A stretch of DNA of 64,000 nucleotides from Bacteriovoracaceae bacterium (GTDB lineage: Bacteria; Bdellovibrionota; Bacteriovoracia; Bacteriovoracales; Bacteriovoracaceae), in the NCBI GenBank assembly GCA_048270185.1, contig JBLWTJ010000002.1, forward strand, positions 96,001-160,000, written 5' to 3'. Under the pieces are notes generated by a model. The model worked only from the letters and a program-made list of their open reading frames with translations. It was not told the origin of the DNA and made no database searches. This document shows, piece after piece, positions 3,224 to 14,787 of the stretch (positions are counted from its first letter, which is position 1; every line of letters starts with the position of its first letter). Made by a program: the position numbers and the translations under genes.

Positions 3224-3239
3224 ATGGTGGAGGTGGTGG
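3224..3239. repeat. att-like direct repeat, copy of the tmRNA 3' end
   Basis: atggtggaggtggtgg identical to 13314-13329. Confidence 0.85.
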
Positions 3240-3339
3240 TAACCTTCGATCACCTTAATATTATTGATATAGCAAGAAGTCATTACTACAAATCACTACA
3301 TTACATTTTTTTAATTTTAAAATCCAAAATATTATCAAT

Positions 3340-4200
3340 TTAAGACTCGTCTTCTTCTATTCTTCTAGTAACTAAATTATTTTGTACGTCTCTAATCCAG
3401 GCTGCGACTCCATTTGAATTTTCTAGACCTGAAAAAAATATAGAGAACCAATTATTGAAAGATTCAAACTCTAAATCTTTATCATCTCGTGTTGAAATAA
3501 ATGAATTTTGCACCTCTTGCTCAGTTACATATCTTCCCCTAGGAAGATGCGGAAGCATTGCCTGGGGAGACCTTACAAGGCTGGCCCACTTGTCACTTAA
3601 CCAATTTAGAATATTCGTCTTTTCTACAACATTATTGATATGAAAAGTAACTGTCTGATTTGCACCCAATTGCCTCAATCTAACAACTGGTGCAGATAAA
3701 TCACCAGAGAATTCACAAGTGATTAACCTTTGGTTTAAAAAGTTATCAAAATATGGATGAATGATTCTTTCATTGGCATTTACTCCAGTAATCACGTTAC
3801 CTCTTTTTGAATTACATAAACATGAAGGTATCAGATTTCGTGAGTGTATTGTAAATTCGGGGTGAGTTGACTGTGGTAGGTAATGATCAACAGTCCCTGT
3901 CCCAATACTCCCACACATAGGGCAACAACTTGTAGAAACTTCATACCTTACTTGAGAAATAAAGCTTAAGCATTTTAGTGGATTTTTATAATGGTATTCT
4001 AGAGCATTTCTCAGTTCTGTGCCAATTTGCACAGAAGGACAGAGATATGGGTTTCCATTATTGTTTATAAATTGCTGATACTGAGCAAGCATAATTAGAT
4101 ACTCATGAGAAAGATAAGGATGACACTTAATGTGAGTCTTGCTACATAAATCTTTTAGCAACTGAATATCATCAATATTTGGCATATTTACTGATTTCAT
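3340..4200 (-). CDS. HNH endonuclease (Septu PtuB-like partner of the upstream ATPase)
   Basis: CPMCG...TVDHYLPQS..PEF.....NLIPSC.CNSKR HNH motif; starts 3 bp after the ATPase stop. Confidence 0.8.
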   Translation of the reverse strand: MKSVNMPNIDDIQLLKDLCSKTHIKCHPYLSHEYLIMLAQYQQFINNNGNPYLCPSVQIGTELRNALEYHYKNPLKCLSFISQVRYEVSTSCCPMCGSIGTGTVDHYLPQSTHPEFTIHSRNLIPSCLCNSKRGNVITGVNANERIIHPYFDNFLNQRLITCEFSGDLSAPVVRLRQLGANQTVTFHINNVVEKTNILNWLSDKWASLVRSPQAMLPHLPRGRYVTEQEVQNSFISTRDDKDLEFESFNNWFSIFFSGLENSNGVAAWIRDVQNNLVTRRIEEDES

Positions 4201-4203
4201 ACT

Positions 4204-5868
4204 TTAACCACTAATTTCTCGTTTTAACGACATCAATACTTCTGTAGATAACTCTGACTTGAGTGTATCGAGGTCAAAATCAATGTTACCTTTTTTATCA
4301 CGAATGTTTTCTAGAATATTATTAGTTAATTTATCATCAATATTGTCATCGAATACAAAGTGAGAAATGTCTCCGATATTAGCTCCATAGGTTTTCAACC
4401 TGGGATTCACAATACTAATACCTCTATCAGGCATCTCTTTAAAAACGTGAACTTGTTCTCTTGATATTTCTCTCACAAAATAAGCAGAATGGGTTGCAAT
4501 AATAGAGTAAGAGCCTGTAGCCCTTAGTAGCGTATTTAGCAATGATATAAAGTCAGAAATTAAATTAGGATGTAAGTGAGTTTCAGGCTCATCTAGTAAC
4601 AAGAGAGAACCGTTCTCGATATGTAAACAAGCTAACAATGCAACTTTAAAAAAAGAAAGCTGACCACTGCTTAAAGGATATAATGTGCCATCTCTAAATA
4701 TTTTGGGCTCAGCCTTCTCACTTATTGCTCCTAATAATAGAAGTCTTCTTTGTTCACCTATATTTCTTTTAAGAAATCCCGACAATGGATAAAACGGAGG
4801 AAGTCCGTCATATTGTTCTATTGGAATTACAATATCCTCAACAGGTAAACAATTACTTACTGAGTTGTAAAAAATATTATATCGAAACTGATTACCAATT
4901 ACATCTTCACTTCTAAGAAGCTGTTGAAAAGATTCCCCTGTTGCCGCATTTATACTTTTACTGTTCCTTATCATATTGAGTAGTTTATATTTTATTCTAG
5001 GCCTCTTAACATTCAGACGTGGAAATGTATTATAAACTTCACCTGGCGTCCCAATGGCAATAAGTCTATTTATTAATGGTCGACCAGTTTTTCCATTTGG
5101 GTCGCGTAAAATATTCAAATGATCTGTTCTTCCTACTAAAGCACTGACAATTTTACTTAATGCCTGGCTTTTACCTAAACCATTTTTACCAATCATAATA
5201 TTAATTCTTTTTGGTAAAACTGAGTCTTGGCTAAAAGTGAATTTTATTTGATGAGGGTTAGAAAATGAATCTAATTGAAATTTTAAATCTAAGTTTTTTG
5301 ATATTATATCGAAGCTTTCAAAGTCAAGGCCTTTTAGAATTTCTCCTGCACTGTGATAAGCAAAATAACTTTCAGAATTCCTCATAAATGCTTCACGAAA
5401 GGCCAAAGATTTCTTTCCCTTTATAAGCCAATCATCTGTTTTTTGTTGTTGTCCTTCCCAGAACACTAAATCTGAAACTGACTTTAGTACAGAATTTGCA
5501 ATTTCAGGTGTTACTGTTTTCACTAATTTTCTATACTCTCCAATAGTTGGCAACATTGTAAAGAATGCTTCGAAGTTTTCAACAGGGATTAATTCTTTTA
5601 CGGAGTTAGTTTTTTGTATATACTCTTGTAGCCTTGACCGAAGTCCAATTTCTACTTCGCTAGTTGTTTCAGGGACAAAAGCGAGAAAACTTTCAAAGGA
5701 AAATAAATCATTATTAGTTTTTAAATAAATTAGTGCTTTAATCTTATGTTTGAAATCATTCCACTGGTCCTCACTTGGAATTATTAAGATTTCTCCAGCC
5801 TCTAATTTGTCAGTATTTTTTTCGAGTGAGAATAAGACCTTCCATTCAGTTATTTTTTTGCTTTCCAT
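4204..5868 (-). CDS. ABC-type (AAA_21-like) ATPase, Septu PtuA-like defence protein
   Basis: Walker A GKNGLGKS, signature LSSGQ, Walker B LLLLDEPETHLHP, H-loop ATHS; no permease nearby; coupled to HNH. Confidence 0.8.
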   Translation of the reverse strand: MESKKITEWKVLFSLEKNTDKLEAGEILIIPSEDQWNDFKHKIKALIYLKTNNDLFSFESFLAFVPETTSEVEIGLRSRLQEYIQKTNSVKELIPVENFEAFFTMLPTIGEYRKLVKTVTPEIANSVLKSVSDLVFWEGQQQKTDDWLIKGKKSLAFREAFMRNSESYFAYHSAGEILKGLDFESFDIISKNLDLKFQLDSFSNPHQIKFTFSQDSVLPKRINIMIGKNGLGKSQALSKIVSALVGRTDHLNILRDPNGKTGRPLINRLIAIGTPGEVYNTFPRLNVKRPRIKYKLLNMIRNSKSINAATGESFQQLLRSEDVIGNQFRYNIFYNSVSNCLPVEDIVIPIEQYDGLPPFYPLSGFLKRNIGEQRRLLLLGAISEKAEPKIFRDGTLYPLSSGQLSFFKVALLACLHIENGSLLLLDEPETHLHPNLISDFISLLNTLLRATGSYSIIATHSAYFVREISREQVHVFKEMPDRGISIVNPRLKTYGANIGDISHFVFDDNIDDKLTNNILENIRDKKGNIDFDLDTLKSELSTEVLMSLKREISG

Positions 5869-6175
5869 AATCTACCTATAATATATATTTACATGTAATT
5901 ATAGAGTAAAAACTAAAAACATAAAACTTACCTGTTTCTAGTTCCTACCTCTTTATAGAATCAATTACTTAAGGAAAGTAAATCTCTATCTTTTCATGTC
6001 TTGAAAAAGAGTTGTTTTATGGACATTTATATTTAGATTAATAACTCTTTAGAAAGATGTAATATTATTACCAGGCACTTTCAATCTAATACAAGCTAGT
6101 TAGTGTGATCACTTTAGTATAAAGTGAAAGTAATCTATTGCTACGCTTACCAGAATTTAAGCTAGTTATGACTTT

Positions 6176-6898
6176 CTATTCTAAAAGTAAATTAGATTTT
6201 TTAGCTAAGTAATCTACACTAGATTGATAATCTGGAAGGAAATTAGATATTAGATTCCAAAACTCTTTACCATGATTACGTTCCTTAAGGTGACACAGTT
6301 CATGTACTACAATATATCTAATTATATATTTAGGTAGAAAGGCCATTCTCCAATCTAATTTAATTACTCCATTATCTTCACATAGCGCCCAAACATCTTT
6401 TCTATCTATAAACTTTAGTTCTGGAGTTTTTATAATTAACTTTGATTCATACATTGAGGTGATTTTAATGTATTCCGTTTCAAGACTTTTCTTAAAAAAT
6501 GAAATAAATGAATCTTTAATTACTTCATTTCTAAATTTTAAAGGTATATCTATTGGAACATTAACATTAAATCCTCTAATAGAATGAGCTATTTCAACTT
6601 CATTCGTCTCGACAGCAGATATATTTATCATCTCATAGCGGTCGTGAAATAGAACCTTTGAACCACTCATAAAGTTTTCCGGCCATGGGTCACGAATCTC
6701 TCTATGACCTAACTCATACCACTGATTGAATATCCACTCTTCATTCTTTCTAAGAAATTCACTATTATCTGATAGCTGGGAACTAGGAACCTCTAACTCT
6801 ATTCCTAAAGGGGTTACATTTAGCCTTCTAGACTTCAATCTCTTATTTAGCGATACCTTACATGGTATTTTAGTTTTACCTACTTCAAAAAAATCCAT
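6176..6898 (-). CDS. M48/YgjP-like (DUF45) zinc metallopeptidase associated with type I R-M
   Basis: YIVVHELCHL...NH..EFW motif; abuts hsdR. Confidence 0.85.
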   Translation of the reverse strand: MDFFEVGKTKIPCKVSLNKRLKSRRLNVTPLGIELEVPSSQLSDNSEFLRKNEEWIFNQWYELGHREIRDPWPENFMSGSKVLFHDRYEMINISAVETNEVEIAHSIRGFNVNVPIDIPLKFRNEVIKDSFISFFKKSLETEYIKITSMYESKLIIKTPELKFIDRKDVWALCEDNGVIKLDWRMAFLPKYIIRYIVVHELCHLKERNHGKEFWNLISNFLPDYQSSVDYLAKKSNLLLE

Positions 6899-9800
6899 TT
6901 AAACCTTTATAAAATTCTTTAATGCGTACTCTTCAACTCTATTTGGAATCTCTTTTTGCCAGCCTTGTAACTTAACTGGTTGCAATATACGTCTTACTTT
7001 CTGCCTCAATTCTTTTCTAAGTTGCTCCATATGATTCCATCCTTTTGGTGCAGAATCATTAGAAGCATAGACTTCCTCTACTTCTTTAGCTATTTCTTTC
7101 AATTTGTTAATAACTTCTTTAGAGAGACCTTCACTTTTTTCATTTTTGGAATCATCATCAGACTTTTCTTCTGACTCATATCTGAAAGCTTCTAATATTT
7201 TTAAAATATCATACCCTCTTTCTGTTAAACCTGAGTCCTTATAAGCTTTATCTTCTTTGTTTAACTCTCCAGATAACTTTTCCATTTCTTTTAGAGCTTC
7301 TGATGCTTCAAGTTGTTTCTCTTCAAGTAATTTAATAATCTCAAGTAATCTTTCTGAAAACTTTTTATAGCGAAGCTCGTTATCATCAACTTTTTCACGA
7401 GTTATTTTCTTTAACTCAGTTGCTTTTCGAGTTGCTGCTTCTTTAATATCTTCAGGTGACTTCCCTTCTGTTTTAAAATCATTTTGAAACTCTGGGTCAG
7501 TTAACTTTCTAAGCTTAATAGTTGTTTTAAGACCTGTTACTTCTAAATGCTCATCAAGCATGGCCCTAATCTTTTCACTGTAATTCCCTAGAGGTTCAGC
7601 TTCTTTTTTCTCAAATGAAGGAGTTGCATATTGTAGGAATGCTACTGTCAGTTTTAAATCTTTTTGAAATTGAAGAATAAATGGTTCTGGACTAAGGATT
7701 TCATAAGCAGAAATAAATTCTTTAGCTTTCTTCTTAAATACAAGCCATCTGTCTTTAGTCTCAATAATCTCAATCAATTTTATGAATTCAGCCCTCAGGT
7801 TTGGCTGATTCCCATCAATCTCTTTTAAATATGCTGATACTTCCTCATGACTTCTAGTCAGATTCTCTTCTAATTTAGAAAAGTCTCTAGTTGCATTCTG
7901 AACATCTTCTTTTCTATAGCACTCTAGGGCCTTATCAAGTTTCTTAGTGATACCAATATAATCTACGATGAGACCACAGTCTTTACGACCTTCACTCCAA
8001 ACTCTATTTGCTCTAGCAATGGCTTGTAGTAAATTATGGTCTGTTAATGGGTTATCAACATACATGACACCTTCAATTGGAGCATCAAAACCAGTTAAAA
8101 GTTTGCTACATACAATTAAAAAAGAAGGCTCTTTGCTTTTTGTCTTAAAGTTATCTTTGATTTCAATTTCTTTATCTTTGTCAGCATAATATTTTTGGAG
8201 GTCTCCTCTTAACTCTTGGATGTACTCCTCCTCGCTTGGCTTAGCATCTTCTTGATTTCCTGAGTAAACACAAGCACTCATCTCATCAGCTTGTTTCTCA
8301 GCCTCTTCTTGTGAAAGTCCAGACTTTACTAAATCAGCAGTAATTACTTTATTTAATGCTCTTTTATATAAAATAATAGCTTCTCTATCATAAGCAACGA
8401 TTTGGGCTTTTAACCCATCTGGTTTTGCATATGCTTTATAGTGAGTCCAAATATCATAAGCTATAAGGTCAATTCTCTTTGGAAACTTAATTAACATTCC
8501 TAACGAGATACCTTTCTCTTTTAAAGCAGAGATGACTTCCTCGGGTTCATTGGCAAACCATTGGTCAAAAAGAATATCCATCTTAGCTGTTTCAACATTC
8601 CACTCAGTCATTCTCGCTGTGTGATGTATAGGAACTGTTGCACCATCTGCTACAGCATCATCAATATCATACTTATCAATGTAACCTTCACCTTCTGGAC
8701 TAAAGTTCGCATAAGTATCCATATCATTCTTTTTAACTGGTGTTCCTGTGAATCCAAAGAACTTAGCTTTTGGAAATGTTGCTCTAAGGTAAGCACCTAA
8801 ATCCTTCTCTTGAGTTCTGTGGCACTCATCTACTAAAAGAATCCAATTTTCACTATTTGGGATTGGGTCCTTTGAACCTTGAAACTTGAAAATAGTTGTA
8901 ACAACTGTAAGGCCCGTTGCCTCTGACTTAATCGTATCTCTTAACTGTGAGACACTCGTCATGTGTTTCGGATTTCTAATACCACAAGCTACAAACGTAT
9001 TCTTGATTTGTGTATCAAGGTCAACTCTATCTGTTAAAACTAGAATATTTGGATTCTCTAATGTCTTTGCATCCAATGTTAGGTGTGTTTTTAGCTTAAT
9101 TGCTGAAAAAACCATTGTTAAAGACTTTCCACTTCCTTGGGTATGCCAAACAAGACCTTTATTCTGTTCATCTTTTACAACTCTATCAACAATCTTGTTT
9201 ACTGCTCTAAACTGTTGGTAACGACATATCTTTTTGATGATATGAGTGTGACCGTCTTTATCCTTCTCTCTTTCAAAAACAATAAAGTGAGCTATTAAAT
9301 CTAAAAGGTTGTCTGGTTGGAGAAGTGCCCATAATGCTTTTTTAAGAGGGTCATTACTCAGGTCTTCATCTGTTTTTGGCCACGGATTTCTCCAATAACC
9401 ATAATATTTTGAACTCGAACCAGTTGCTCCATACAATGTGTTCTTTTCATTTGTTACAATATTGAAACAATTAGAAAAGAAAAGCCTTGGAATATCTCTT
9501 TCATATTGCTTTATCTGGTCAAAGGCTTCACCTGTTTTATCTTTATATGCAAAAGGACTCTTGGCCTCAATTACAACAACAGGAATACCGTTGATAAAAA
9601 TAACAACATCAGGCTTTCTAGAATGTTGAGACTTAACATAATACTGATTAGTAACAGTGAAAGTGTTATTTTCTGTATTCTTAAAATCAATTAGAAATAT
9701 AGTCTTTTTATCTGACTGTCCAGGAACGCTTTTACTATAGTCTCCTTTGATTATCTTTAACCATTTTTCATTATCAGAAAGGTTCAATAAATCTTGATAA

Positions 9801-10039
9801 ACAGAGTTTGCTACCTCGTCATCAACATCATTTATTCTTTTTATTGCAGCAAGAAGTTCATTTCTTAAAATGACATTTGTCTCACCATCTCTTTCTTGAG
9901 AATGTTTAGCTGGTTGGAGGTATTTATATCCTACAGTCTTATCATTACTCTTAAATAAATCGTCCTTACATAAGAAATCAAGAATTGGCACTTCAACCAT
10001 TCTCGTTTCTGGACCATATCCATCGGTCTCATAGCTCAT
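6899..10039 (-). CDS. hsdR: Type I restriction endonuclease subunit R
   Basis: KPD...FINGIP...IEAK nuclease motif, WHTQGSGKS, DECHR, GFTGTP, LTGFDAP, QAIARANR. Confidence 0.96.
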   Translation of the reverse strand: MSYETDGYGPETRMVEVPILDFLCKDDLFKSNDKTVGYKYLQPAKHSQERDGETNVILRNELLAAIKRINDVDDEVANSVYQDLLNLSDNEKWLKIIKGDYSKSVPGQSDKKTIFLIDFKNTENNTFTVTNQYYVKSQHSRKPDVVIFINGIPVVVIEAKSPFAYKDKTGEAFDQIKQYERDIPRLFFSNCFNIVTNEKNTLYGATGSSSKYYGYWRNPWPKTDEDLSNDPLKKALWALLQPDNLLDLIAHFIVFEREKDKDGHTHIIKKICRYQQFRAVNKIVDRVVKDEQNKGLVWHTQGSGKSLTMVFSAIKLKTHLTLDAKTLENPNILVLTDRVDLDTQIKNTFVACGIRNPKHMTSVSQLRDTIKSEATGLTVVTTIFKFQGSKDPIPNSENWILLVDECHRTQEKDLGAYLRATFPKAKFFGFTGTPVKKNDMDTYANFSPEGEGYIDKYDIDDAVADGATVPIHHTARMTEWNVETAKMDILFDQWFANEPEEVISALKEKGISLGMLIKFPKRIDLIAYDIWTHYKAYAKPDGLKAQIVAYDREAIILYKRALNKVITADLVKSGLSQEEAEKQADEMSACVYSGNQEDAKPSEEEYIQELRGDLQKYYADKDKEIEIKDNFKTKSKEPSFLIVCSKLLTGFDAPIEGVMYVDNPLTDHNLLQAIARANRVWSEGRKDCGLIVDYIGITKKLDKALECYRKEDVQNATRDFSKLEENLTRSHEEVSAYLKEIDGNQPNLRAEFIKLIEIIETKDRWLVFKKKAKEFISAYEILSPEPFILQFQKDLKLTVAFLQYATPSFEKKEAEPLGNYSEKIRAMLDEHLEVTGLKTTIKLRKLTDPEFQNDFKTEGKSPEDIKEAATRKATELKKITREKVDDNELRYKKFSERLLEIIKLLEEKQLEASEALKEMEKLSGELNKEDKAYKDSGLTERGYDILKILEAFRYESEEKSDDDSKNEKSEGLSKEVINKLKEIAKEVEEVYASNDSAPKGWNHMEQLRKELRQKVRRILQPVKLQGWQKEIPNRVEEYALKNFIKV

Positions 10040-10049
10040 TTTAATTTCC

Positions 10050-11210
10050 TTATATTACTTTTTTATCTCCTGTAAAAAAGTCTTTCTTTAATCCTTTTTT
10101 AATATACTCAAGTCGCTCAATTTTTTTATTCAACGTTGAAATCAAGGAGTCAATTTCTCTAATTACTTTTACAACTTCATCTTGTTGTTTCAGAGACGGT
10201 AAAGGTACGGGAATCTTTGAAAAGTCCGCATAATAAAGCCTTAACCTGTCATTGGTTAAACCGTAAGAATATTGATGAAACAATCTAATAAATTTCTCAG
10301 TTTGAAAGAGGTAATTATAAAACTGTGTATTTATATTTTTATTTTTTGGCTCCAGAACCACATATGCTGGACTTACTAGGAAATCTTGATTAGCAATGCC
10401 TTGAACGCCTTGCCACATTCTCATCATGTTATAAGCAATCCAACCTTTTTTAACCCATAGATGGTCTTCTGCTTTTAAGTTTGTCTCAACTTTTTTCTCT
10501 TCTTCACTACGAGGAACAATTCCACGTCCTTTAGTTACAGAAGCAAGAGGTATTCCATCAACTCCCTTGAGTTTGGAATCCTTAAATATATCTCCCATTT
10601 TAACAACATCAAATGTACTACTATCTTTTAATACTTTCCCCTCTTCCAAACATAATTGATAAAGGTCATTCATAACTCCTTTTTTAAGAGCCTGAGTTTT
10701 AATAATCCGTTTTTTGAATGCTTTTAATGTTGACTCTATAGAGTCTAAGATTTCCACAATTCTAGCTTGTTCTTTATTTGAAGGGATTGCAATTGGTATC
10801 TTTAAGATTTCTGGTTCAGAAATTTCTTTTTGGCCTGTTCCGCCAATTAAATTATCTACTTTTTTATAAAAACCATACCACTGAAATAACAACTCAATAA
10901 ACTTATCATTCTCATTTTCCTTGCACTTAAAACTAGATATTGCATTCGATGCAATTAAGCCATCTAAACTTTTTGGTACAATTCCAATCCCACCGTTATG
11001 GAAGTTTTGCCGACCGATTAAAATCTCACCTTCGTTTCTGATATAATACGGTCTCCCCCTCTCTGTAGGAACAGGTCTTTTACCTGAGTTTTTTATACCT
11101 TTACCGTGAAGCTGTACTGTTAAAGCATAATAATTTTGTGGAGATTCAACCTTTTCCTTTTTTACAATCTCTAGAACATCTCCAATTTTACACTTCCTCC
11201 AACTATTCAT
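10050..11210 (-). CDS. hsdS: Type I R-M specificity subunit S
   Basis: Two TRDs followed by IPIAIPS..EQ..IV and IPVPLPS...Q..VV conserved repeats. Confidence 0.92.
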   Translation of the reverse strand: MNSWRKCKIGDVLEIVKKEKVESPQNYYALTVQLHGKGIKNSGKRPVPTERGRPYYIRNEGEILIGRQNFHNGGIGIVPKSLDGLIASNAISSFKCKENENDKFIELLFQWYGFYKKVDNLIGGTGQKEISEPEILKIPIAIPSNKEQARIVEILDSIESTLKAFKKRIIKTQALKKGVMNDLYQLCLEEGKVLKDSSTFDVVKMGDIFKDSKLKGVDGIPLASVTKGRGIVPRSEEEKKVETNLKAEDHLWVKKGWIAYNMMRMWQGVQGIANQDFLVSPAYVVLEPKNKNINTQFYNYLFQTEKFIRLFHQYSYGLTNDRLRLYYADFSKIPVPLPSLKQQDEVVKVIREIDSLISTLNKKIERLEYIKKGLKKDFFTGDKKVI

Positions 11211-12906
11211 AGCCCAACTCTTTTAAAAAACTATTCAGTTTCTTTTCAGTTTGACCTAGTTGTTCATTAACTTGATTTAATGAAAAAGTGTAATTATCCC
11301 AGATATTTGACAATAAATTAAAGAGTGCGACTCTTTCGTCGCCAATTACTTTTTTCAAATCCGATTTAAGTTTAAAGACAGGCTGAAAGCGAATTGAATC
11401 GCCCTTTATTTCAAATACTGATTCAACATCTAATCCTTCCATCAACTCAATAAAATATTCATCTTCAAGTTCATATTTAGGAATGCCTCCCTTTAGAATA
11501 TGTTCGACATCATAATTCGTTAAAGGAGGTGCCGTATCTATATATCTTCTGATGTTTAAGTTGTAGTCATTTTCACCTAGTTCTTTATGTGAAACGACGA
11601 TAGAGAACCTATTTTCTTCAGTGTAGTTTGAGTAAGTTTCAACAATCTTATCAATGTCTGAAGACCTCAACCTTCTTTGGATTTTCCTATCCTCATAAAG
11701 CAACTCTGCATTTATAAACAACAATTTCTTTTTTCTATTCTCATCTCTTTTCTTTTTAAAAATTAACAGTGCTGTTGGAATCCCTGTTCCATAAAACAAT
11801 CCCTCAGGTAATCCAATAACAGCATCCAGAATATCCTCATTTTCAAATAAAGCTGTTCTTATTTTTCCTTCAGCATTTCCCCTAAACAAAATACCATGTG
11901 GAACGATAACTCCTAGCCTTCCATTTGAATTGAGGCTTTTTATCATATGCTGAACGAATGCAAAGTCTGCATAACTCTTGGGCGGACAACCAAATAAGTC
12001 TCTTCCGTAAGGGTCACCACCTTTCCATATCTCTTGTCCCCAGTTTTTTAATGAAAATGGAGGATTTGCTATAACAAAATCAAAAGTTTTAATTTTCTTT
12101 GATGCTTCATCATCAAATAAGAGAGGTTTTTTTAAAGTATCACCATGAACGACACGAGCATCATCAATATCATGAAGGAAAAGGTTCATCTGAGAAATTG
12201 CCCATGTATTTATGTTTTTCTCTTGCCCAAAAAGTCTTAACGACTTGGGATTTTTTTTATTTCTCTCCATATAATGAAAAGCCTCAAGTAACATACCTGC
12301 TGAACCACATGTAGGGTCATAAACACTTGCTCCTTCACTAGGCTTTAACAACTCTACGATTAACTGGACTACTTCTTTGGGAGTATAGAATTCACCACCT
12401 TTTGAACCTGCATCGTCTGCAAACTTTGCAATTAAGTATTCATATGCATTTCCAAGCATGTCCGATGGGACATTCTTTTTCATTAGAGAGTATTTATCAA
12501 AATGCTGGATAAGCAATTCTAATGTAGAATCAGGAAACCTTCTCTTATTATTAAAATCTACATCCTGGAATACTCCATTTAACCTCTTGTTAGAATCTTC
12601 AATTGCTCTAAATGAGGAATTTAATGCTTCTCCAATATTTGTTGTCTTCTTTTTTACATCAGACCAAAAACAACCTTCAGGGATATGAAAGCGGTGCTCT
12701 TCAGGGTCCTTAGCAAGTTCTTCGTCTTCAAACTCCTTCAACCTTTCTTCGTACTCCTCTACCCATACATCTGAAAGACGCTTATAAAATAGAAGTCCAA
12801 AAATATAATGTTTATAGTCGGCCGCATCGATGGCACCTCTTAAAATATCGGCTGCTCCCCAGAGATGCGACTCAAGTTCTTGTTGTGTCAGTTTCTTATT
12901 TTCCAT
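11203..12906 (-). CDS. hsdM: Type I R-M m6A methyltransferase subunit M
   Basis: LW.AAD.LRG, GEFYTP, YDPTCGSAGML, NPPF. Confidence 0.96.
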   Translation of the reverse strand: MENKKLTQQELESHLWGAADILRGAIDAADYKHYIFGLLFYKRLSDVWVEEYEERLKEFEDEELAKDPEEHRFHIPEGCFWSDVKKKTTNIGEALNSSFRAIEDSNKRLNGVFQDVDFNNKRRFPDSTLELLIQHFDKYSLMKKNVPSDMLGNAYEYLIAKFADDAGSKGGEFYTPKEVVQLIVELLKPSEGASVYDPTCGSAGMLLEAFHYMERNKKNPKSLRLFGQEKNINTWAISQMNLFLHDIDDARVVHGDTLKKPLLFDDEASKKIKTFDFVIANPPFSLKNWGQEIWKGGDPYGRDLFGCPPKSYADFAFVQHMIKSLNSNGRLGVIVPHGILFRGNAEGKIRTALFENEDILDAVIGLPEGLFYGTGIPTALLIFKKKRDENRKKKLLFINAELLYEDRKIQRRLRSSDIDKIVETYSNYTEENRFSIVVSHKELGENDYNLNIRRYIDTAPPLTNYDVEHILKGGIPKYELEDEYFIELMEGLDVESVFEIKGDSIRFQPVFKLKSDLKKVIGDERVALFNLLSNIWDNYTFSLNQVNEQLGQTEKKLNSFLKELGYE

Positions 12907-13314
12907 GTAAAAAATAGTATATTAAAGATAACGCTTTTTGAATTGAAACTTATCTCAATTTCAATGAGTTAAGTTCTCTTCATTTAAATTTTGTAGTTAG
13001 AATTTTTGAAGGAATGTTTTGTTGTTAATCAATACAGTTTTAAAAACTTGTTTTAACTTCAACTCATTAGTGTCCATTAAACCTCTCAACACCTTTCGGA
13101 CTGAATGTATGACTATCACTTCGTCTTGGAAGTTTTGTTTCTTAAAAGTGCTATTAAATTTGTAGTTTGTTTGGGCCTCAAACTACGGCCACCAACTACA
13201 AAGTGTTGCAACAGGGCTTATTTTAAGTGATTTCTACTGACATTGAGCTAGTTAGCAAAGCATCAAGTCGTTGAGATTACTGAAGCCAAAACTCAACAAT
13301 TTCAACGCCTTGCA

Positions 13315-13682
13315 TGGTGGAGGTGGTGGGAATCGAACCCACGTCCGAAATGATTTCTTGATAGCGGCCTACGTGCGTAGTCTTCGGTTATCGTCAGAAG
13401 ACAAGACTGTCCGTGATACGTGACCTCGGCGAACCCCGGTGAGTGATTAACGAGCAGGCCCGGCGGGCTCGAAACCTAGTTAGCCAGCAGATTCAACTGG
13501 GTCGCTACATTCTGTTTCTTGGCAGTAGCGCCTCACAAGACTAATCCTAATTAATTAGGCAGCCATTGGCATTGCATAATCGTCTGCAATTAACGGTGGA
13601 CTCCTTTTTACCAGGACCGTGGAGACCAACCTGGACACGCCCGGATACCTGTCTACCATCCCGTCGAAACCAGGGCACCCCC
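13315..13682 (-). ncRNA. ssrA: tmRNA; tag peptide (A)ADDYAMPMAA* encoded at 13587-13555
   Basis: 5' GGGGGUG...GGUUUCGAC and 3' GGUUCGAUUCCC-ACCACCUCCACCA; acceptor stem with G3-U wobble; internal tag ORF ending AA-stop; smpB present in window. Confidence 0.96.
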
Positions 13683-13726
13683 ATGAGATTTTGACACGGA
13701 TATTTGAACAAATATTCGTAAGCGGC

Positions 13727-13755
13727 AGTATAGCACAGCATTTCAAATGTGGAAA
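13727..13755 (-). promoter_or_regulatory. Probable sigma70 promoter of ssrA
   Basis: Minus strand TTTCCA-N17-TATACT with TG extension. Confidence 0.55.
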
Positions 13756-13787
13756 GAAATGGATTTTCGGTGATTTGATATAGTCTC

Positions 13788-13865
13788 AAAAAGAAGAACC
13801 CCGTAAAACGGGGTGCTTCTTTGGCAAGTCATAGAATTGTGATCTCGAAGGGCACAACCTATTTA
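13788..13865 (-). ncRNA. Candidate antitoxin sRNA 1 (ends approximate)
   Basis: Extended -10 TGGTAAAAT (13880-13872); terminator hairpin accccg-taaaa-cggggt with U-rich tail on the minus strand; complementary to peptide-1 mRNA at 13949-13966 and 14009-14025. Confidence 0.65.
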
Positions 13866-13939
13866 CAAAGAATTTTACCATACTTTGCCGATTTCCTCCA
13901 TTCTTCCTCAATGAGGAGGACTCTTTTTTGGAGATGTTC

Positions 13940-14014
13940 ATGGAAGGACTTTGGCAAGTCATAGAAATCATAGTGCTTATTATTCAGTTAATTCTGGTTC
14001 TAAGAAAGTTGTGA
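13940..14014 (+). CDS. 24-aa hydrophobic peptide MEGLWQVIEIIVLIIQLILVLRKL, candidate type I toxin 1
   Basis: GGAG SD 6 nt upstream, single TM-like helix with basic C-terminus, own terminator, paralogue 253 bp downstream. Confidence 0.75.
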   Translation: MEGLWQVIEIIVLIIQLILVLRKL

Positions 14015-14020
14015 TTTCGG

Positions 14021-14048
14021 AGGGCGTAGTGAAAGCTGCGCCCTTTTA
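14021..14048 (+). terminator. Intrinsic terminator of peptide 1
   Basis: agggcgtag-tgaaag-ctgcgccct hairpin followed by T run. Confidence 0.75.
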
Positions 14049-14049
14049 T

Positions 14050-14120
14050 AAACAACAAAACCCCGTAAGAACGGGGTTAAGTTTTTGGTTACTACTAGAA
14101 ATCCTCGGAGGGCACTAGAT
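14050..14120 (-). ncRNA. Candidate antitoxin sRNA 2 (ends approximate)
   Basis: Extended -10 TGCTATAAT (14135-14127); terminator aaccccgt-aaga-acggggtt plus U-rich tail; complementary to peptide-2 mRNA at 14204-14222 and 14269-14278. Confidence 0.65.
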
Positions 14121-14192
14121 TAATCAATTATAGCATAATTCTAACCATAGCTCCACTTTCTCCGCCCAATGAAGGGAGTCTAGGAGAAAGTC

Positions 14193-14267
14193 ATGGATGA
14201 CTATTGGTTACTACTAGAAATCATGACCTATGTAGTTCAAATTATTTTGATCTTACGGAAGTTGTGA
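14193..14267 (+). CDS. 24-aa hydrophobic peptide MDDYWLLLEIMTYVVQIILILRKL, candidate type I toxin 2
   Basis: AGGAG SD; same length and W..EI..Q..L.LRKL pattern as peptide 1; own terminator. Confidence 0.75.
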   Translation: MDDYWLLLEIMTYVVQIILILRKL

Positions 14268-14273
14268 TTTCGG

Positions 14274-14302
14274 GGGGCGCAGTGAAAGCTGCGCCCCTTT
14301 TT
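14274..14302 (+). terminator. Intrinsic terminator of peptide 2
   Basis: ggggcgcag-tgaaag-ctgcgcccc followed by ttttt. Confidence 0.75.
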
Positions 14303-14304
14303 CC

Positions 14305-14787
14305 CTACTCCCCACTCCTAGCACGAGCAATATCGTAGAATCCCTCATAGATCAGGTAAATAGGAATCATAACGATCAGCTGAACGGCCACGACTTTCAC
14401 CAAGAATAAAGCCGAGTAAACACTACTTGGAAAGAAGTACAAGAGCGTTGCGATTTGAAAGGTTCCAGCCCCAAAGACGCTGGCATTCTTAAAAGATCGA
14501 GAAATGAAGTCATAAGGAGAACGGATATCTTTAAGCGTAATCTTTGCTTTCATATCCTCACCCTTTGCAAGCTTTTTAAAATTTGCAAATCCTCCTAGGA
14601 TTGCAACGAGGAGGAAGTGCGCCAGAGTTAGCCCTATAATAACTGATAAAATCACAAGATAGAGGTCAAGTGAGCTCTCAATACTTGAGCCTCTTCTCTC
14701 ATAACCACAAACTCCTCCAAGCACAAGACCTGAAAGGTAGATCATCACAATTGAATAATTTAATTTAAACTTACTCATCACTATCAT
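14305..14787 (-). CDS. Hypothetical 4-TM membrane protein
   Basis: ORF with four hydrophobic segments; operonic with two upstream genes. Confidence 0.6.
   Translation of the reverse strand: MIVMSKFKLNYSIVMIYLSGLVLGGVCGYERRGSSIESSLDLYLVILSVIIGLTLAHFLLVAILGGFANFKKLAKGEDMKAKITLKDIRSPYDFISRSFKNASVFGAGTFQIATLLYFFPSSVYSALFLVKVVAVQLIVMIPIYLIYEGFYDIARARSGE

Follow-up and report, generated by a model that had tools for sequence, protein, structure and literature searches.

Two tandem type I toxin-antitoxin-like units next to ssrA in a Bacteriovoracaceae bacterium, with small RNAs predicted to pair with the toxin mRNA at two separate sites

The 64,000-nucleotide stretch analysed here, hereafter the window, comes from contig JBLWTJ010000002.1 of a Bacteriovoracaceae bacterium (assembly GCA_048270185.1) and carries, at positions 13788-14305, two tandem units that resemble toxin-antitoxin (TA) systems of type I and adjoin ssrA, the gene for transfer-messenger RNA (tmRNA). 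Each unit consists of a plus-strand open reading frame (ORF) of 24 codons for a hydrophobic peptide and of a divergent minus-strand gene for a predicted small RNA (sRNA), the latter with an extended -10 box and an intrinsic terminator. The -10 boxes of the sRNA and toxin genes lie back to back and the predicted transcripts do not overlap; the sRNAs would be about 65-80 nt long across all units found, and the peptide mRNAs about 150 nt. Between its 5' end and its terminator hairpin, the body of the sRNA is a continuous antisense copy of two separated mRNA segments, one early in the coding region, spanning codons 4-9 (block 1), and one that takes in the last codons, the stop codon and the 5' arm of the mRNA terminator (block 2). 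On the evidence given below, we consider it probable that this is a type I TA-like module whose sRNA clamps the mRNA at both sites.

In unit 1, the segment 13837-13853 directly abuts the copy of block 1 (13819-13836) and matches 14009-14025 at 15 of 17 positions. Searching the whole window for this 17-mer with up to three mismatches returned three matches, namely itself and the two toxin 3' ends; in 100 shuffles the mean was 0.07 matches, and no shuffle reached three. In unit 2, the segment 14104-14113 abuts the block-1 copy (14085-14103) and matches 14269-14278 at 8 of 10 positions. These strings, with block 2 abutting block 1 and the second site more than 40 nt further along the mRNA, had been named in the original prediction, which was made from the letters of the window; all were found in place, and the spacing between the two mRNA sites measures 42 nt in unit 1 and 46 nt in unit 2 (41-47 nt across the six units described below). 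We also confirm that the four differences (13844 C/14016 T, 13848 A/14020 G, 14104 C/14269 T and 14109 A/14274 G) are all C-for-T or A-for-G, and these give G-U pairs only if the minus-strand RNA meets the plus-strand mRNA. When G-U pairs are counted, block 2 extends beyond the stretch first given: unit 1 then has an unbroken pairable run over 14007-14030 (24 nt), and unit 2 has one over 14268-14280 (13 nt). Across the six units the targets lie from +7/+13 to +24/+30 relative to the AUG and from -5/+3 to +11/+18 around the stop codon.

We found six intact units: the two of the window, an orthologue of unit 1 in genome G138, one each in genomes G178 and G164, and one on a metagenome contig (L081). 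All six share the same layout of sRNA terminator, block 1, block 2 and -10 box. The toxins are 29-46% identical between subgroups, the stop codon varies (TGA, TAA, TAG) and block 2 has turned over wholly between subgroups and differs between units (TTGTGATTTCGGAGGGC, CTAAGAGGGAG, TCTAAGGGGGAG, TCTAGAGGGAGGGG), with the sRNA locus tracking its own mRNA each time. To avoid circularity, we delimited the 12 blocks by identity alone, blind to the class of difference (+1 per match, -1.5 per mismatch). They contain 174 identities and 13 differences, of which 11 belong to the wobble class, none to the opposite transitions and two to the transversions (sign test 11 vs 0, p = 0.0005; 10 vs 0 if G138 is left out); block 2 alone has eight, none and one, respectively. 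When the comparison is carried six positions beyond this core of block 2 in each unit, in the direction of the terminator arm and the 5' end of the sRNA, 15 of the 36 positions are wobble-class (13% baseline; p = 2e-5) and three are opposite transitions, whereas the outer flank of block 1 shows no wobble excess (3 vs 4). As a control, the two classes are nearly equal at wrong offsets (wobble-class 13.2%, opposite 10.1%). With G-U pairs counted, the runs reach 13-24 nt in block 2 and 13-21 nt in block 1, where the G164 block-2 and G178 block-1 runs include one transversion; the unbroken G164 block 2 is 19 nt, and its block 1 only 13 nt. Because the six units keep both blocks despite diverged sequence, and because their differences are biased toward the wobble class, these comparisons support the view that pairing between sRNA and mRNA is under selection. 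The proposal that RNA-RNA pairing, and not a plain DNA duplication, is what selection maintains is thus supported by six diverged units and by the 11/0/2 count.

Besides the intact units, two dead copies of the module were seen, one in G138 (L032, ~1455-1590) and one in G164 (contig C127; L127, reverse strand, ~85-215). In both, the toxin ORF, present from about codon 10 onward, follows directly on the sRNA terminator and block 1, and both promoters, the 5' untranslated region (UTR) and the start codon are gone. They are best read as deletions through recombination between the identical block-1 repeats; the very repeats that would enable RNA pairing also make the locus prone to loss. A relative in a marine metagenome run (X8) has an intact unit-2-like copy over 14050-14276, whose sRNA block 1 differs at 14085, 14090, 14092, 14094 and 14095 and represents the block-1 version of the dead G138 copy.

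Part of the asymmetry between the classes could be mutational, since deamination of the non-template strand of both genes would yield exactly wobble-class changes; together with the two transversions among the 13 internal differences, each two positions from a segment end, this counts against selection on pairing. Pushed to its limit, the argument would explain the whole pattern by such a bias plus occasional gene conversion: on geometric grounds, C-to-T and A-to-G changes on either non-template strand give just the observed classes, and the two deletion remnants show that the repeats do recombine. However, deamination-type mutation biases are few-fold. A bias of this size does not explain the absence of the opposite class (11:0 internally, 15:3 in the flank) or the scarcity of transversions, which it would not suppress. 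Furthermore, the classes are nearly equal at wrong offsets within the same transcribed regions, and conversion of tracts of 13-20 nt would have to recur in every lineage, so that we regard this explanation as very unlikely. An account that dispenses with antisense RNA altogether, in which the repeats act as DNA, i.e. as regulator-binding or recombination sites, appears extremely improbable. Direct repeats do flank the promoter region and deletions between them occur, but the repeat sequences differ fully between units and match within each unit, and therefore do not fit one conserved DNA-binding protein; in addition, a strand-specific wobble pattern has no meaning at the level of DNA, and on the minus strand the upstream copies each sit between a -10 box and a terminator.

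Table 1. Features of the two units and the adjoining ssrA gene (window coordinates; aa, amino acids).
Feature	Position	Strand	Remarks
tmRNA gene ssrA	13315-13682	-	immediate neighbour, 121.8 bits; units lie just upstream
Predicted sRNA-1, antitoxin candidate	13788-13866	-	~79 nt; 5' end guessed (+/- 3 nt)
sRNA-1 intrinsic terminator	13790-13822	-	arms 13790-13804 and 13808-13822, then T-run
sRNA-1 segment complementary to mRNA block 1	13819-13836	-	18/18 identical to plus strand 13949-13966
sRNA-1 segment complementary to mRNA block 2	13835-13858	-	identity core 13837-13853; 24-nt pairable run with 7 G-U pairs; 7 nt from predicted sRNA 5' end
sRNA-1 extended -10 box TGGTAAAAT	13880-13872	-	regular-expression match
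Toxin-1 mRNA 5' UTR hairpin	13902-13920	+	conserved CAATGA loop 13909-13914
Toxin-1 ORF, 24 aa, MEGLWQVIEIIVLIIQLILVLRKL	13940-14014	+	stop TGA 14012-14014; GGAG 6 nt upstream of ATG
Unit 1 mRNA block 1, codons 4-9	13949-13966	+	+10 to +27; 15-bp intermolecular helix in cofold
5' strand GAAATCA of internal helix closing the transmembrane-coding hairpin, unit 1	13964-13970	+	alignment columns 93-99 pair with 141-147
Unit 1 mRNA block 2	14007-14030	+	last codons, stop codon, internal-helix 3' strand and entire terminator 5' arm (12/12 nt inside run); -5 to +18 relative to stop
3' strand TGATTTC of internal helix, unit 1	14012-14018	+	within block 2
Toxin-1 mRNA intrinsic terminator	14019-14047	+	12-bp stem, -19.8 kcal/mol, then T-run
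Predicted sRNA-2	14050-14124	-	~70-75 nt
sRNA-2 terminator	14059-14078	-	with T-run
sRNA-2 segment complementary to unit 2 mRNA block 1	14085-14103	-	19/19 identical to 14204-14222
sRNA-2 segment complementary to unit 2 mRNA block 2	14103-14115	-	13-nt pairable run with 4 G-U pairs
sRNA-2 extended -10 box TGCTATAAT	14135-14127	-	regular-expression match
Unit 2 5' UTR hairpin loop CAATGA	14167-14172	+	
Toxin-2 ORF, 24 aa, MDDYWLLLEIMTYVVQIILILRKL	14193-14267	+	stop TGA 14265-14267
Unit 2 mRNA block 1	14204-14222	+	+12 to +30; 16-bp helix in cofold
Unit 2 mRNA block 2	14268-14280	+	begins right after stop codon; 9/12 nt of terminator 5' arm
Toxin-2 mRNA intrinsic terminator	14272-14302	+	12-bp stem, -23.8 kcal/mol, then T-run

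The individual features of the two units are compiled in Table 1. Terminator-like sites are dense in this part of the window, with six within 13500-14500 vs 0.8 expected from shuffles. Extended -10 motifs are present on the minus strand of all six units, 2-10 nt upstream of the block-2 complement if a 7-nt discriminator is assumed, and all six peptides (24-25 aa) have a hydrophobic core between an acidic N-terminus and a basic C-terminus. Both toxin ORFs of the window are preceded by a GGAG-type ribosome site. Two other arrangements were considered and discarded: a plus-strand promoter inside the sRNA locus, which would make a cis-antisense pair, has a candidate in unit 1 that, judged by eye, is not conserved, and a leader ORF from the AUG of the CAAUGA loop varies in frame among units and joins the toxin in only two of six. 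No LexA-type operator was seen at the locus by eye, and no scan was run for such operators. As to the surroundings, the 20 bases at the 3' end of ssrA (13315-13334) have a second copy at 3225, identical at 18 of 20 positions. Between the two copies, over ~10 kb (3225-13315), the G+C content is 0.32-0.34 vs 0.36-0.41 elsewhere, and there are six long minus-strand ORFs, including an HsdM-like methylase (11203-12906); this segment looks like an island with a type I restriction-modification system that integrated into ssrA.

The family is carried by four of 12 genomes of the genus (G138, G178, G164 and the genome of the window, G000) plus the one metagenome contig. G000 (3.35 Mb, 95.9% complete) contains these two copies only. 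DNA BLAST against 201 genomes of the family found a match in G138 only, and searches with hidden Markov models (HMM) of the peptides in all 237 family and 238 order genomes gave clear matches only in the four carriers, the remaining matches being weak (E of at least 0.012 in one search and at least 0.029 in the other). Fifteen weak HMM matches were read, and two of them proved real. A repeat-signature screen of 57 weak-hit loci detected block-pattern repeats only in the two known positives; seven other weak-hit loci carry other repeats, of which only those of L040 were compared with its hit. The candidates G164:C71 and G152:C10 were read and rejected as units, and at G164:C280 (L130) no block-type repeat appeared in the repeat screen, the sole check made there. 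Searching the genome contigs for the pattern of related loci yielded 17 matches, none confirmed by tblastn. With a degenerate DNA pattern, 13 stretches were found in the genome contigs, one of them real (L068, identical to G164); L065, L070, L071 and L076 were read and rejected, and the other eight were judged from the translated frame alone. The same pattern found 22 stretches in metagenome contigs, two of them real, i.e. the new unit L081 and L098, which is identical to G178. A contig of run X3 is nearly identical, with two differences, neither of them inside a block.

We then turn to the fold of the mRNA. For the six mRNAs, RNAalifold predicts a helix that joins the end of block 1 with the stop region, formed by GAA-AUCA with UGAU-UUC in the two window units and G138 and by GAAGUG with CACUUC in G178 and L081. 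This basal helix covaries, three of its pairs being altered on both sides. The target sites thereby make up both basal strands of a conserved hairpin that spans the transmembrane (TM)-coding middle of the ORF: because the 3' end of block 1 pairs with the 5' end of block 2 in the free mRNA, both sites lie side by side, and because they are the strands of the hairpin base, the predicted complex is a three-way junction. Minimum free energy (MFE) structures from RNAcofold contain both intermolecular helices and keep the inner hairpin in five of the six units, with differences in free energy of -11 to -21 kcal/mol. That the sRNA would set aside the TM-coding middle, as had been suggested together with a cofold as a check, agrees with this conserved hairpin with covarying base and with the two helices formed around it. 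Compared with 100 shuffled sRNA bodies, the duplexes reach z-scores of -2.5 to -6.6, and the cognate sRNA is the best partner for five of six mRNAs; by prediction the two window units are orthogonal, with -21.1 and -16.3 for the cognate pairs against -7.3 and -7.2 for the crossed ones. The mRNA ensemble leaves the first 8 nt of block 1 largely free (unpaired 0.25-0.94, with four of six units at 0.67 or more), and the Shine-Dalgarno (SD) and start region is more often paired than this start of block 1; these values depend on the guessed 5' ends. The distance of the block-2 run from the predicted 5' end of the sRNA is 2-10 nt in all units, and the run spans the stop codon in five of six units, unit 2 being the exception.

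Further structure is found in the leaders. The stem of the 5' UTR hairpin covaries as well, and its CAATGA loop is invariant in all six units (outside the window at L022, L037, L039 and L081); this loop is probably an RNA recognition or structural motif. In unit 1 the hairpin followed by CTCTTTTTTG (13902-13929) was scored as a terminator-like site on the plus strand immediately before the ribosome site, and could be a transcription attenuator in the toxin leader. In the G164 leader (L039, ~1480-1500), the SD-like purine run is separated from the ATG by ~18 additional nt, which fold into a GC-rich hairpin of their own that includes the start codon.

From these elements the following course of events can be proposed, in which both RNAs would be transcribed, the peptide would be toxic and the sRNA would repress it. 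Nucleation is most likely at the 5' part of block 1, which is accessible; from there the sRNA would zip to the base of the hairpin and then displace the other strand, which would result in a three-way junction with ~30-40 intermolecular pairs. Pairing within the first five codons blocks initiation, and the region covered by a starting ribosome has its edge about where block 1 begins. Since pairing starts at +7 to +13, it may block initiating ribosomes, while the long duplex may be offered to RNase III, and with the stop codon and the terminator arm tied up the 3' end may be exposed to exonucleases. The original prediction had placed such decay in lieu of a block of the ribosome-binding site; this part is not supported, as block 1 starts at the edge of the starting-ribosome region, which gives a direct block of translation at least the same likelihood. 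G000 has an RNase III domain gene (contig C1, 124641-125015). An Hfq domain was not found in the 95.9%-complete G000 assembly by a search that was positive in five of 14 control genomes, and block 2 may supply the affinity that a block 1 of 13-19 bp alone may lack without detectable Hfq.

Several results weigh against pairing at both sites or against the module as such. The 5' ends of the predicted RNAs, including that of the toxin mRNA, are guesses from the -10 boxes, and the sRNA promoters rest on regular-expression matches; owing to their weak -35 boxes they were missed by a general promoter scan. Among the RNA sequencing runs checked for this stretch, none was found to contain the locus, so both RNAs are predicted. 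The sample of relatives is small and related, G138 being an orthologue of unit 1 and all genomes belonging to one genus. The block 2 of unit 2 is short, with nine identical and 13 pairable positions, and leaves the stop codon uncovered. In G164 the cofold uses block 1 only, and its mRNA pairs better with the L081 sRNA than with its own (-17.2 vs -11.0). Finally, the idea that the sRNA invades the terminator stem is half sustained: in all six units the terminator 5' arm, 10-16 nt long, includes 8-12 nt with which the block-2 run could pair, but the terminator hairpin stays closed in all six MFE cofolds. As this G-C-rich stem is closed at equilibrium, terminator capture is a conserved potential that would have to be realised kinetically, for instance by an sRNA that has bound block 1 before synthesis of the 3' end is complete.

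Following this route further, the clamp might act on the nascent transcript and its 3' end. A docked sRNA would then capture the stop codon and the terminator 5' arm before the 3' arm exists, and the toxin mRNA would read through the terminator or end without its protective hairpin; alternatively, RNase III might cut the block-2 helix and remove the stop codon, and the peptide from the resulting non-stop message might be tagged by tmRNA. The tmRNA gene adjoins the module in two of the four carrier genomes. We see this as an unlikely course; if it were true, a trans-acting sRNA would silence by disabling an intrinsic terminator or a stop codon.

The weakness of the second site in some units also lends itself to another explanation, according to which only block 1 works and block 2 is a functionless leftover of a partial toxin-gene duplicate from which the top of the hairpin was deleted. 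The sRNA locus indeed resembles a toxin gene minus its hairpin, with short shared letters at the junction, the cofold of unit 2 uses only 5 bp of block 2, and this site is short in unit 2 and left out of the G164 cofold. However, a leftover should decay by all types of change, while block 2 has eight wobble-class differences, no opposite transition and one transversion, and its next six positions have 15 wobble-class differences against three opposite transitions. Block 2 is also kept in all six units despite its turnover between subgroups. Moreover, block 1 of G164 has only 13 nt; for OrzO/zorO, the available text of PMC3919570 gives 15 continuous pairs as enough and 12 as too few. We therefore judge a relic block 2 distinctly unlikely and keep to an sRNA that pairs with both sites.

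Even if the pairing is real, the peptide might be no toxin but a small membrane protein under sRNA control that serves in housekeeping or under stress. Toxicity is predicted by likeness to type I loci, the distribution is narrow and patchy, and no toxin family was matched: the six peptides hit no Pfam family at E <= 10, which also speaks against assigning them to a known toxin family, and no NCBIfam family, the single match there (E = 0.09) being with one member only. In Rfam, tmRNA alone passes, and the best matches on the units stay far below the gathering scores. Pfam, NCBIfam and Rfam hold models for the known divergent type I toxins and sRNAs. On the other hand, the loci bear type I hallmarks, i.e. 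a short peptide with acidic start, hydrophobic core and basic end, tandem duplication, a dedicated complementary sRNA, and a structured 5' UTR with a mostly paired start region; furthermore, two loci were inactivated by deletion, as expected of dispensable selfish modules. A non-toxic role thus seems improbable to us, and a toxin mRNA held by its sRNA at two sites is the reading with which we continue.

Judged from sequence comparison, the units represent a new family whose pairing geometry is new among a known kind of system, the divergent type I TA loci, and the family with its putative two-site clamp is so far known from one genus of marine predatory bacteria only. Type I TA systems are known mainly from enterobacteria and Firmicutes, and their sRNAs either target the 5' UTR or the start region or overlap the 3' end in cis over a long stretch. 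The hosts here are marine predatory Bdellovibrio-like bacteria in which a short trans-encoded sRNA can read both strands of a hairpin base as one guide and so link start-proximal codons to the stop codon and terminator; the bacterium of the window apparently lacks Hfq. Two units with little predicted cross-talk in one cell offer a compact natural orthogonal pair of RNA switches, and a clean test of what a second, distant site adds to the speed of sRNA binding and to silencing. Cases in which natural variation by itself, here the wobble-only divergence, speaks for contact between two RNAs at an intrinsic terminator are also rare. A literature search for type I TA together with names of the Bdellovibrio group gave nothing linking the two among the matches listed, and one for type I TA with three-way junction, bipartite or terminator stem gave no two-site clamp among the matches listed.

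At the level of sequence, the units share the generic traits of type I systems: an ORF of less than 60 aa for a hydrophobic, membrane-helix-like peptide, an sRNA gene with promoter and terminator, and, by prediction, pairing between the sRNA and the toxin mRNA. In T1TAdb, the known families are characterised through their SD/anti-SD elements, the terminator and 5'-3' features, as far as the available text goes (PMC8594479). The nearest in layout are the 'unconventional' divergent type I loci ZorO-OrzO/ZorP-OrzP of E. coli O157:H7, TisB-IstR-1 and ShoB-OhsC (PMC3919570, in the part available). With these loci the units share a small hydrophobic ORF and a divergent, non-overlapping sRNA, and with ZorO-OrzO/ZorP-OrzP in particular a complementarity that stems from a short repeated sequence. 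According to the same part of that paper, tandem homologous units that discriminate each other's sRNAs, and RNase III discussed as a partner, are further common points (PMC3919570). ZorO-OrzO-type sRNAs are described there with a single site of 18-21 nt in the 5' UTR, and OrzO needs at least 15 continuous pairs (PMC3919570); in our units, in contrast, codons 4-9 and the stop codon with the terminator arm are read by one contiguous stretch of sRNA. No relation of peptide or RNA sequence to the ZorO-OrzO-type families was found in Rfam, Pfam or NCBIfam.

The par locus of pAD1, with the Fst mRNA RNA I and the antitoxin RNA II, likewise uses pairing at several sites with involvement of the terminator region (PMC7472228, here and below in its available part). 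As in par, where they are called DRa and DRb, direct DNA repeats are read in opposite directions, and an intramolecular 5' stem-loop sequesters the SD sequence (PMC7472228). The original prediction had set par apart because its RNAs are convergent, and this contrast stands, since they share one bidirectional terminator whose loops make the first contact (PMC7472228), whereas our units have divergent promoters and separate terminators (13790-13822 and 14019-14047 in unit 1). Because par also uses oppositely read direct repeats, however, its logic is closer than had been implied. There are other differences: DRa and DRb cover the SD sequence and the start codon (PMC7472228), while here block 1 lies inside the ORF, and the 5' part of our sRNA matches the 5' arm of the mRNA terminator, not its loop. 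Fst-type peptides have a PXXXG(C) motif in a conserved hydrophobic domain (PMC7472228), which is impossible in our six peptides as none of them contains proline.

By analogy, the closest described precedent for the dual route proposed here is bsrG/SR4 of Bacillus subtilis. SR4 is a convergent cis-antisense RNA that overlaps the 3' end of bsrG. Like the sRNAs of our units would do, it both promotes decay of the toxin mRNA and inhibits its translation; in the available account it makes first contact via its terminator loop, and its block of translation is indirect, through the lengthening of a helix in which the SD sequence is sequestered (PMC3834814). Our sRNAs differ from SR4 in that they are trans-encoded and use two short blocks. 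TimP and TimR of Salmonella are, like our units, divergently encoded. There, too, the sRNA remodels a defined fold of the mRNA and does not simply cover the SD sequence, and, in the part of that work available, TimR acts in the 5' UTR, where it destabilises a pseudoknot needed for translation (PMC11228461); in our units, the predicted targets are a coding-region hairpin and the 3' end of the mRNA.

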